Shown: positions 454-3,233 of the stretch, one piece after another
Numbering within the stretch: position 1 is the stretch's first letter
Layout of the letters: each line of letters starts with the position of its first letter
Source of the DNA: a virus
Taxonomy: Duplodnaviria > Heunggongvirae > Uroviricota > Caudoviricetes
Direction: 5' to 3' (one strand)
Length of the DNA: 4,364 nt
IMG/VR virus record: IMGVR_UViG_2534681675_000009
Program-made: the position numbers and the translations under genes
Notes under the pieces: generated by a model
Told to the model about the DNA's origin: nothing
The model's input: the letters and a program-made list of their open reading frames with translations, nothing else
Databases searched by the model: none

Positions 454-779
454 AAACCTTCCGCTGGAAAGTGAAACCCGGTATGGATGTGGCTTCGGCC
501 CCTTCCGTCAGGAAGGTGCGCTTTGGTGATGGCTATTCCCAGCGTGCGCCTGCCGGGCTGAATGCCGACCTGAAAACGTACAGTGTGACGCTTTCCGTGA
601 CCCGGGAGGAGGCCCGGCATCTGGAGTCGTTTCTGGCAGAGCACGGGGGCTGGAAGGCCTTTCTGTGGACGCCGCCTTATGCATACCGGCAGATAAAGGT
701 GACCTGCGCAAAATGGTCGTCGCGGGTCAGTATGCTGCGTGTTGAGTTCAGTGCAGAGTTTGAACAGGTGGTGAACTGA
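450..779 (+). CDS. M: Minor tail protein M (tail tip assembly), 109 aa
   Basis: ATG at 450 overlaps the H stop. The 109-aa product (MKTFRWKVKPGMDVASAPSVRKVRFGDGYSQRAPAGLNADLKTYSV...) has the same length and position as lambda gpM. GC-rich, in phase with flanking genes. Confidence 0.9.
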   Translation: MKTFRWKVKPGMDVASAPSVRKVRFGDGYSQRAPAGLNADLKTYSVTLSVTREEARHLESFLAEHGGWKAFLWTPPYAYRQIKVTCAKWSSRVSMLRVEFSAEFEQVVN

Positions 780-1477
780 TGCAGGATATCCGGCAGGAAA
801 CACTGAATGAATGCACCCGTGCGGAGCAGTCGGCCAGCGTGGTGCTTTGGGAAATCGATCTGACAGAGGTCGGTGGAGAACGTTATTTTTTCTGTAATGA
901 GCAGAACGAAAAAGGTGAGCCGGTCACCTGGCAGGGGCGACAGTATCAGGCGTATCCCATTCAGGGGAGCGGTTTTGAACTGAATGGCAAAGGCACCAGT
1001 ACGCGCCCCACGCTGACGGTTTCTAACCTGTACGGTATGGTCACCGGGATGGCGGAAGATCTGCAGAGTCTGGTCGGCGGAACGGTGGTCCGGCGTAAGG
1101 TTTACGCCCGTTTTCTGGATGCGGTGAACTTCGTCAACGGAAACAGTGACGCCGATCCGGAGCAGGAGGTGATCAGCCGCTGGCGCATTGAGCAGTGCAG
1201 CGAACTGAGCGCGGTGAGTGCCTCTTTTGTACTGTCCACGCCGACGGAAACGGACGGCGCTGTTTTTCCGGGACGTATCATGCTGGCCAACACCTGCACC
1301 TGGACCTATCGCGGTGACGAGTGCGGTTATCACGGTCCGGCTGTCGCGGATGAATATGACCAGCCGACGTCCGATATCACGAAAGATAAATGCAGCAAAT
1401 GCCTGAGTGGCTGTAAGTTTCGCAATAACGTCGGCAACTTTGGCGGCTTCCTTTCCATTAACAAACTTTCGCAGTAA
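779..1477 (+). CDS. L: Minor tail protein L (tail tip assembly; C-terminal cysteine cluster), 232 aa
   Basis: ATG at 779 overlaps the M stop (TGATG at 777-781). The 232-aa product has the same length as lambda gpL. C-terminal Cys cluster (C173, C182, C205, C208, C212; nt 1295-1414) is consistent with the Fe-S-binding region reported for gpL. Confidence 0.9.
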   Translation: MQDIRQETLNECTRAEQSASVVLWEIDLTEVGGERYFFCNEQNEKGEPVTWQGRQYQAYPIQGSGFELNGKGTSTRPTLTVSNLYGMVTGMAEDLQSLVGGTVVRRKVYARFLDAVNFVNGNSDADPEQEVISRWRIEQCSELSAVSASFVLSTPTETDGAVFPGRIMLANTCTWTYRGDECGYHGPAVADEYDQPTSDITKDKCSKCLSGCKFRNNVGNFGGFLSINKLSQ

Positions 1478-1487
1478 ATCCCATTTT

Positions 1488-2231
1488 ATGACACAGACTG
1501 AATCAGCGATTCTGGCGCACGCCCGGCGGTGTTCGCCTGCGGAATCGTGCGGCTTCGTGGTGAGAACGCCGGAGGGAGACAGGTATCTTCCCTGCGTGAA
1601 TATCTCCGGTGAGCCGGAGGCGTATTTCCGGATGTCGCCGGAGGACTGGCTGCGGGCAGAAATGCAGGGTGAGATTGTAGCGCTGGTCCACAGCCACCCC
1701 GGTGGACTGCCCTGGCTGAGTGAGGCCGACAGGCGGCTGCAGGTGCAGAGTGATTTGCCGTGGTGGCTGGTCTGCCGGGGGGCGATTCACAAGTTCCGCT
1801 GTGTGCCACATCTTACCGGGCGACGCTTTGAGCACGGGGTGACGGACTGTTACACGCTGTTCCGGGATGCTTACCATCTGGCGGGGATTGAGATGCCGGA
1901 TTTTCATCGCGGGGATGACTGGTGGCGTAACGGCCAGAATCTCTATCTGGATAATCTGGAGGCCACAGGGCTGTATCAGGTGCCGTTGTCAGCGGCGCAG
2001 CCGGGCGATGTGCTGCTGTGCTGTTTTGGTTCATCTGTGCCGAATCATGCCGCCATTTACTGTGGTGACGGCGAGCTGCTGCACCATATTCCTGAACAAC
2101 TGAGCAAACGAGAGAGGTATACCGACAAATGGCAGCGACGCACACACTCCCTCTGGCGTCACCGGGCATGGCACGCATCTGCCTTTACGGGGATTTGCAA
2201 CGATTTGGCCGCCGCATCGACCTTCGTGTGA
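1488..2231 (+). CDS. K: Tail tip assembly protein K, two-domain (N-terminal JAMM/MPN-like metalloprotease motif + C-terminal NlpC/P60-like cysteine peptidase); 247 aa if started at the first ATG after L, with an alternative internal start at 1632 (199 aa)
   Basis: ORF in frame with the track entry 1407..2231; first ATG after the L stop is 1488 (MTQTESAILAHARR...). JAMM-type motif H-x-H-x7-S-x2-D seen directly in VHSHPGGLPWLSEAD (nt 1689-1730). NlpC/P60-like Cys context GVTDCYTLF (Cys at 1848-1850) and downstream His-rich NHAAIYCGDGELLHHIP. No clear Shine-Dalgarno before either start. Confidence 0.85.
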   Translation: MTQTESAILAHARRCSPAESCGFVVRTPEGDRYLPCVNISGEPEAYFRMSPEDWLRAEMQGEIVALVHSHPGGLPWLSEADRRLQVQSDLPWWLVCRGAIHKFRCVPHLTGRRFEHGVTDCYTLFRDAYHLAGIEMPDFHRGDDWWRNGQNLYLDNLEATGLYQVPLSAAQPGDVLLCCFGSSVPNHAAIYCGDGELLHHIPEQLSKRERYTDKWQRRTHSLWRHRAWHASAFTGICNDLAAASTFV

Positions 2232-2842: not shown

Positions 2843-3181
2843 ATGAACAAAACGATTTTATTCTGCACGATTATTGCCTTAACAGGATGTAAATCTTTGG
2901 ATTACGTAAAATCCGGAAAACCTGTAATGGAAGGTAATTCATTAAAAAATATTGATGAATTGTCAGGCTGCATATCCAGACAATGGGCTGGTAATGGAAC
3001 ACCTATAACATCCCTTCCTATTGAGAATGGGGTAAGCCTTTTAGTTCCACAGGCTATGGGTGGGTACGATGTTGTGCTTGATATCAAAAAAGCAGGAAAT
3101 GGCAGTAGTTTTACTCTTTATGAACGAGTACCAGCATTAACGCCAAAAATTTTTGCTGATAGTGTTAATGCATGTAAATAA
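2843..3181 (+). CDS. Small predicted outer-membrane lipoprotein of unknown function (moron gene), 112 aa precursor, ~97 aa mature
   Basis: ORF-track entry 2831..3181 begins at TTG; the in-frame ATG at 2843 gives a canonical lipoprotein signal: MNK (n-region), TILFCTIIA (h-region), lipobox L-T-G-C (nt 2879-2890), then Lys at +2. AT-rich with A/T-ending codons, contrasting sharply with flanking tail genes. Two more Cys in the mature part (LSGCIS and NACK). No recognisable SD. Sequence not recognised by me. Confidence 0.7.
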   Translation: MNKTILFCTIIALTGCKSLDYVKSGKPVMEGNSLKNIDELSGCISRQWAGNGTPITSLPIENGVSLLVPQAMGGYDVVLDIKKAGNGSSFTLYERVPALTPKIFADSVNACK

Positions 3182-3205: not shown

Positions 3206-3233
3206 AGCCGCCTTTTGGGCGGCTTTGTCGTTT
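3206..3233 (+). terminator. Rho-independent terminator-like hairpin between the lipoprotein gene and J
   Basis: Perfect 7-bp stem AGCCGCC (3206-3212) / GGCGGCT (3218-3224) with 5-nt loop TTTTG, followed by T-rich tract TTGTCGTTT (3225-3233). It starts 25 nt after the lipoprotein stop and ends 15 nt before the J ATG. Oriented for + strand transcripts (no U-tract on the other side). Confidence 0.55.

Follow-up and report, generated by a model that had tools for sequence, protein, structure and literature searches.

Tail gene K of a lambdoid prophage very probably starts 48 codons upstream of the annotated lambda start and encodes a complete predicted JAB/JAMM domain

Gene K of the prophage segment analyzed here very probably encodes a 247-residue protein with two peptidase domains, beginning at the ATG at position 1488, and positions 1488-1631 would constitute the true 5' end of the gene; this reading is drawn from comparative sequence analysis and from a structural model. 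Throughout, "the window" denotes the whole stretch of DNA that was analyzed (4,364 bases). The initial annotation, made from the letters of the window, had proposed that the 247-residue form is the real product and that the shorter K of 199 residues is an under-call. Matches to Pfam profiles, the residue E19, an AlphaFold2 model, dN/dS values, the continuity of the reading frame and the position of the start codon among homologues all agree with this proposal.

Organization of the tail-tip gene cluster

The window covers the tail-tip part of a lambdoid prophage, from the end of H to the start of J, and its DNA is 95-97% identical to the closest records, which come from E. coli prophages and lambda-group phages. 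The genes are arranged in the order M-L-K-I-(small ORF)-J, with L on one side of K, the ubiquitin-like I on the other, and J further downstream. In the list of ORFs, M occupies positions 450-779, and gene L, encoding the minor tail protein L of 232 aa, extends over 779..1477 on the plus strand and ends with a TAA stop at 1475-1477. The L product is near-identical to lambda L, and an equivalent CDS is annotated by PGAP in NZ_CP086678. As read in the initial annotation, 10 nt (1478..1487, plus strand) separate this stop from the ATG at 1488. Gene K itself (1488..2231, plus strand) comprises 247 codons and a stop, and its predicted product is a tail tip assembly protein composed of a JAB/JAMM and an NlpC/P60 domain.

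Downstream, gene I encodes the ubiquitin-like tail assembly protein on the plus strand and, in the ORF list, extends from 2129 or 2168 to 2770. Its start is ambiguous: the lambda-style ATG at 2129 overlaps the 3' end of K by 103 nt, the ATG at 2168 is the choice of PGAP (the alignment with phrog_32 begins at residue 1 of this form), and a third option, found in other annotations, is a start that overlaps the K stop and yields proteins of 182-190 aa. Between I and J, a small plus-strand ORF of 112 aa (2843-3181) matches phrog_914 and is annotated by PGAP as the hypothetical protein WP_001332187. This ORF sits in an AT-rich island, with a GC content of 0.36-0.38 compared with about 0.58 around it; its product bears a lipoprotein-type signal, MNKTILFCTIIALTGC, and a terminator-like GC hairpin followed by a T-run was recognized by eye on its 3' side, at about 3207-3233. 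It looks like a moron, and lambda lacks it.

The K region shares about 95% DNA identity with lambda-group phages. The annotated lambda gpK (NP_040598, 199 aa) occupies the same position in the order H-M-L-K-I-J, and residues 49-247 of the window protein correspond to it. Compared with the lambda reference sequence, the window differs in its continuous K ORF, in the L-K spacer, which is longer by 5 nt (TTTTA; columns 25-29 of alignment A1), and in the small AT-rich gene between I and J.

The reading frame of gene K

Positions 1488-2231 translate as 247 codons and a stop, with zero internal stops. The frame is thereby open from the ATG at 1488 through the internal ATG at 1632, in accord with the initial annotation. 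The internal ATG (1632..1634, plus strand) is codon 49 (M49) and is the start used in the 199-aa "lambda K" annotation; the 199-aa product read from it corresponds to lambda K. The motif HxHx7Sx2D, located at 1689-1730, was likewise correctly placed 19 codons after the internal Met (H68 versus M49). By a rough estimate, the chance that a 48-codon stretch is open at the GC content of the window is about 0.1-0.15. The open stretch alone is therefore insignificant, and the weight of the argument is carried by its conservation.

A predicted JAB/JAMM domain that spans the extension

Residues 1 to about 105 of K are a predicted JAB/JAMM (MPN+) zinc metalloprotease domain, as judged from profile, motif and modelled fold. 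The Pfam profile Prok-JAB (PF14464; gathering cutoff, 25 bits) matches the 247-aa form with 52.4 bits, over profile positions 3-103 of 114. In contrast, the 199-aa form scores 23.1 bits, which is below the cutoff, and matches profile positions 63-103 only. This comparison of the long and short forms had been suggested with the initial annotation, and its outcome favors the long form. The 48 residues alone match profile positions 3-40 (E = 4.6e-5).

The best sequence match in the PDB is the JAMM structure 2KKS, which aligns to residues 7-105 of K. In this alignment PAESCG of K pairs with PNEACG of 2KKS, and ILAHARRCSPAESCG lies opposite MLAHARQALPNEACG. On this basis E19 (GAA, 1542-1544), which is part of the motif P17-A-E19-S-C21-G22 (1536..1553, plus strand), is identified as the Glu of EXnHS/THX7SXXD and thus, by sequence, as the JAMM catalytic Glu. 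Together with the zinc-binding part of the motif, H68-S-H70-x7-S78-x2-D81 (1689..1730, plus strand), it completes the JAMM signature in K: E19, H68-S69-H70, S78 and D81, arranged as E-x48-H-S-H-x7-S-x2-D. The motif Glu is present in the long form only. In the definition of the EXnHS/THX7SXXD motif, as worded in PMC300881, two His and the Asp serve as zinc ligands, and the Glu forms a hydrogen bond.

The initial annotation had placed an upstream Glu in the extension, which is where E19 is found, but the residues that it named, E29 (in RTPEGDRY) and E42/E44 (in SGEPEA), are not conserved; among 77 full-length homologues these positions are mostly occupied by Gly, Asp or a gap. Since E19 also lies within the extension, the reasoning behind that proposal still holds. 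In JAMM proteins, the hydrogen-bond partner of the Glu is the zinc-bound water.

An AlphaFold2 model of K, computed on the family alignment (pLDDT 97, pTM 0.91), contains a helix (residues 3-15) and two strands (21-27 and 30-36) within the extension, followed by helix 51-60, strand 62-69, helix 79-88 and strands 92-96 and 99-103. According to the model, the 48-codon N-terminal segment (1488..1631, plus strand) would encode helix 1 and strands 1-2 of the JAB domain and, with E19, would supply its catalytic Glu. The best Foldseek match is PfJAMM1 (5LD9/5LDA), with 107-109 aligned columns, an rmsd of 2.5-2.6 and a TM-score on target of 0.67; the 199-aa form would retain only 57 JAB residues, fewer than these columns. 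Motif and fold are thereby common to K and to other prokaryotic JAB/JAMM proteins (PF14464), including PfJAMM1 (5LD9), AfJAMM and DSY2949 (2KKS). Unlike in those proteins, the domain is fused in K to an NlpC/P60 domain, and it is encoded in a phage tail cluster beside a ubiquitin-like protein.

Conservation and selection in the extension

An exhaustive HMMER search returned 2,761 cluster representatives, and the alignments of the full-length ones (225-262 aa) begin at query residue 4-10. The family alignment was composed of 77 full-length homologues with 33-58% identity. Among its 23 family-wide conserved positions, six (P17, E19, C21, G22, N38 and F47; each kept in at least 90% of the 77) fall within the extension: G22 and N38 are invariant, E19 is kept in 76 of the 77, and P17 and C21 in 72 each. 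In the remainder of the JAMM motif H68, H70 and D81 are invariant in the 77 homologues, and S69 and S78 each occur in at least 90%. The N-termini of the same 77 proteins lie within -7 to +8 residues of M1.

Closer relatives comprised 85 loci, of which 80 were IMG/VR contigs and 5 were lambda records; together they represent 77 unique sequences. An uninterrupted ORF of 247 codons is present in 83 of the 85 loci, the exceptions being one nonsense codon and one frameshift, the latter in the lambda reference. The nonsense codon was observed in locus L048 (IMGVR_UViG_2537561603_000004), as a premature stop at K codon 60. Pooled over the 77 unique close relatives (Nei-Gojobori), codons 1-48 have a dN/dS of 0.21 and codons 49-247 one of 0.12. 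For the stretch of codons 1-48, a shift to the +1 or +2 frame raises the value to 2.3 or 2.4, respectively, and 30 of its 47 variable sites are third codon positions. The sequence comparisons indicate that purifying selection on the extension is confined to the K frame. The examination of 1488-1631 in homologues for frameshifts, stops or neutral evolution, which the initial annotation had recommended, accordingly met with none of these, as judged by ORF continuity and dN/dS.

The position of the start is also maintained over larger distances. In 42 distant genomes (46-76% identity), among them Citrobacter, Proteus, Morganella, Providencia, Xenorhabdus, Pasteurellaceae and others, a start codon is located within -1 to +3 codons of M1, and the proteins measure 239-248 aa. 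These starts are usually separated by 1-12 nt from the end of the preceding ORF, presumably the L homologue.

These data bear directly on the reading embodied in the records NC_001416, HK629 and lambda imm21, in which the 199-aa product from ATG 1632 would be the sole K and 1488-1631 an untranslated or decaying leader. The SD-like sequence ahead of ATG 1632 speaks for this reading, as does the annotation of these records, but it is highly improbable. The supposed leader is subject to in-frame purifying selection and holds six family-wide conserved residues, including the predicted catalytic Glu; the short form fails the Pfam cutoff for JAB; and the lambda annotation goes back to the omission of a single base, which is described below.

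Initiation signals upstream and downstream of ATG 1488

No Shine-Dalgarno (SD) sequence was detected before ATG 1488, the predicted duplex between the L-K spacer and the 16S tail having a value of +0.7 kcal/mol. The initial annotation had considered that neither start has an obvious SD, which is accurate for ATG 1488 but not for ATG 1632. The latter is preceded, at a distance of 11 nt, by an SD-like GGAGG (1616..1620, plus strand), located within codons P43-E44-A45, whose duplex with the 16S tail is worth -9.5 kcal/mol, similar to those of the M and I starts. The same GGAGG is marked as an RBS in lambda imm21 (OM418625).

For ATG 1488, the combination of a missing SD and a position 10 nt after the L stop makes termination-reinitiation coupling the most likely mode of initiation. 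Coupling to L is also suggested by the spacers of 4-12 nt across relatives and by the tight junctions within the cluster, and the short distances to the upstream stop in the distant genomes fit it as well. Ribosomes that have just terminated on L would then start at ATG 1488.

The length of the spacer varies among relatives: in the 75 with a measurable L-K gap it is 4 or 5 nt, versus 10 nt in the window. These lengths differ modulo 3, which implies that the stretch upstream of ATG 1488 does not stay in frame with K from one relative to the next. This disfavors a start still further upstream, at GTG 1407 or TTG 1440, which would yield proteins of 274 or 263 aa and overlap the end of L. The frame of the window is indeed open back to 1407, but neither codon is preceded by an SD and the N-termini of the homologues cluster at M1. 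Such starts are extremely improbable, and both candidates were rejected on the out-of-frame variation of the spacer.

Given a GGAGG at 11-nt spacing before ATG 1632 and none at 1488, some initiation at the internal ATG is plausible. Under dual initiation, the 247-aa protein from ATG 1488 would be accompanied by a nested 199-aa product, translated from ATG 1632 by way of the GGAGG at 1616-1620. This second protein would have NlpC/P60 as its only domain, along with a JAB remnant that does not fold. Such an arrangement is unlikely, although several observations are in its favor. The duplex is on par with those of the M and I starts, 75 of the 77 unique close relatives share ATG 1632 and all of them the GGAGG, and some phages have an NlpC/P60-only K homologue (PMC1779556). 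On the other hand, the GGAGG codons are constrained by the protein and leave only about two synonymous bases, so that their invariance at about 10% synonymous divergence proves nothing. Moreover, residues 49-105 form half of a single fold, and the 11-nt spacing exceeds the optimum for initiation in E. coli. Finally, the position of M49 is occupied by Ile in 50 and by Met in 12 of the 77 diverse homologues, which argues against a family-wide internal start. M49 directly precedes helix 51-60 of the JAB fold in the AlphaFold2 model and is probably an ordinary internal Met.

A more specific proposal, under which K of the E. coli lambda group is a nested pair whose long-to-short product ratio matters for assembly of the tail tip, is decidedly unlikely. 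Comparable nested pairs are S107/S105 and C/Nu3 of lambda. Under the preferred reading, in which the 247-residue protein is the product of K, the tryptic peptides distinctive of the long form would include CSPAESCGFVVR and YLPCVNISGEPEAYFR.

The NlpC/P60 domain

The second half of K, residues about 111-224, is a predicted NlpC/P60 cysteine peptidase domain, on the evidence of sequence and model. Pfam PF00877 matches residues 111-224 (1818..2159, plus strand), a papain-like peptidase domain, with 47.7 bits against a cutoff of 23. The residues expected of this family are C121 (1848-1850), H187 (2046-2048) and H199 (2082-2084), which are kept in 76, 76 and 77 of the 77 homologues, respectively. 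Foldseek matches for the C-terminal half of K are MepS (8XUP) and Spr (2K1G). The Cys121, His187 and His199 residues and the match to PF00877 are thus common to K and to NlpC/P60 (C40) peptidases like E. coli MepS/Spr. In contrast to MepS/Spr, K lacks both a signal peptide and a lipobox, and this points to an assembly factor that stays in the cytoplasm.

A probable one-base omission in the lambda reference sequence

In the lambda reference record, NC_001416, K is annotated at 14276-14875. An ORF opens upstream, at ATG 14133, whose first 45 codons are homologous to the extension of the window; it is thereafter out of frame and ends after 76 codons. The difference can be traced to a single base. 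The reference reads GAGGC-TATTTCC, whereas the window and the records KT232076, LC730321, PV340536 and OM418625, which are resequenced lambdas or lambda hybrids, read GAGGCGTATTTCC; J02459/NC_001416 lack one G after position 14266. This omission places the upstream 45 codons out of frame and results in the 199-residue reference K. The initial annotation had viewed the shorter K start in some older lambda annotations as an under-call. It is right in that 199 aa is too short, but the short form was also forced on annotators by the omission of the G from the reference.

In a collection of phage sequences, exact matches to the reference at this site were confined to J02459, NC_001416, OR474059 and OR974322. 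OR474059 is an engineered strain flagged UNVERIFIED. OR974322 is described as an isolate, lacks the G and has feature coordinates identical to those of NC_001416, which suggests a reference-guided assembly. By comparison, the span is 302 rather than 301 bases long in DE3, HK629, HK630, lambda imm434 and many others.

An additional source of lambda sequence was found in a scan of genome contigs: 20 contaminant contigs of lambda cover the site, and every one has the G. In ten of the 20, the full 1,447 nt of L-K are otherwise identical with the reference. These contigs (L094, L096-L098, L100, L101, L103-L105, L111 and others) are of low coverage and occur in unrelated bacterial assemblies, with hosts that include Neobacillus, Pseudomonas, Chromatium, Shewanella, Bradyrhizobium, Leeuwenhoekiella, Paenibacillus and Oceanobacillus. 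They are read as contamination with control DNA.

The additional base has also surfaced elsewhere. The lambda example of breseq presumably contains the entry "+G at 14,266, intergenic L/K". A table of the lambda-gt10 transgene in MutaMouse lists "14266 C>CG" in every copy, without comment, and the same table also gives 137 AG>A (PMC6760142). If 137-138 and 14266 are both errors of the reference, the deletion and the insertion cancel in length.

The simplest reading is that one base was omitted from the lambda record of 1982. The true K ORF of lambda would then also comprise 247 codons, starting at 14133. Alternatively, the G might really be missing from the sequenced cI857 S7 stock, and K would be produced by ribosomal frameshifting or as two polypeptides. 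Four records, J02459, NC_001416, OR474059 and OR974322, are consistent with a real absence, but two of them are compromised, OR474059 as an unverified, engineered sequence and OR974322 by coordinates equal to those of the reference. Furthermore, the base is carried by four resequenced lambdas or hybrids, by lambda-gt10 and by 20 of 20 contaminant contigs, ten of which are otherwise free of mismatches over 1,447 nt. A real absence of the G is therefore very unlikely. A genuine or programmed frameshift in lambda K was rejected, as every independently assembled lambda carries the G.

Distribution of long and short K annotations

The length assigned to K varies among annotated genomes. It is 199 aa in NC_001416, HK629 and lambda imm21, 211 aa in KT232076 and 247 aa in PV340536, and PGAP gives 247 aa in NZ_CP086678, the closest E. 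coli prophage. The UniProt entry for lambda K presumably also has 199 aa. Upstream of two 199-aa gene calls, which represent clusters of 4,936 and 1,684 sequences, the 48 codons are open and in frame, which marks those two calls as under-calls. Gene finders may favor an ATG preceded by an SD and so give rise to calls of 199 aa.

No published statement of a 247-aa lambda K was found in a search of the full-text literature. A published HHpred analysis of lambda K, treated as a protein of "199 residues", gave only the peptidase domain (PMC7291167). The 247-aa K is an annotation correction and not new biology, and current PGAP already uses the long form for E. coli prophages. A useful by-product is the documentation that a sequence error truncates the reference entry for lambda K.

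Implications for the function of K

The architecture of K, JAB followed by NlpC/P60, has been known since 2006, when Iyer, Burroughs and Aravind described the TAPK family, in which the two domains occur beside the ubiquitin-like TAPI (PMC1779556). The K protein of the window is an ordinary homologue. It shares with the TAPK family both the two-domain architecture and the I/J neighborhood; no difference was detected, and it is a typical member.

In lambda, gpK is needed for tail assembly (PMC12617516), and mass spectrometry found it to be absent from virions (PMC10721106). By analogy, we infer that K helps to assemble the tail tip without becoming part of the virion. Virions show only residues about 134-223 of gpI, and the way in which gpH is cleaved is unexplained in the literature. 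Iyer et al. predicted that the JAB domain of K releases the ubiquitin-like domain of gpI (PMC1779556), and by the same analogy the JAB domain of K in the window may process the ubiquitin-like gpI.

The correction has practical consequences for this line of work. Without its first 48 residues, the reference lambda K misses the predicted catalytic Glu and half of the JAMM fold, and the truncated protein has spread to further phage records (HK629, lambda imm21) and is in use in recent structural and bioinformatic papers on the lambda tail. Tests of the JAB domain on the cleavage of gpI or gpH that make use of the reference K would clone an inactive fragment. The activities proposed for K, processing of gpI and cleavage of gpH, would all need the N-terminal 48 residues.
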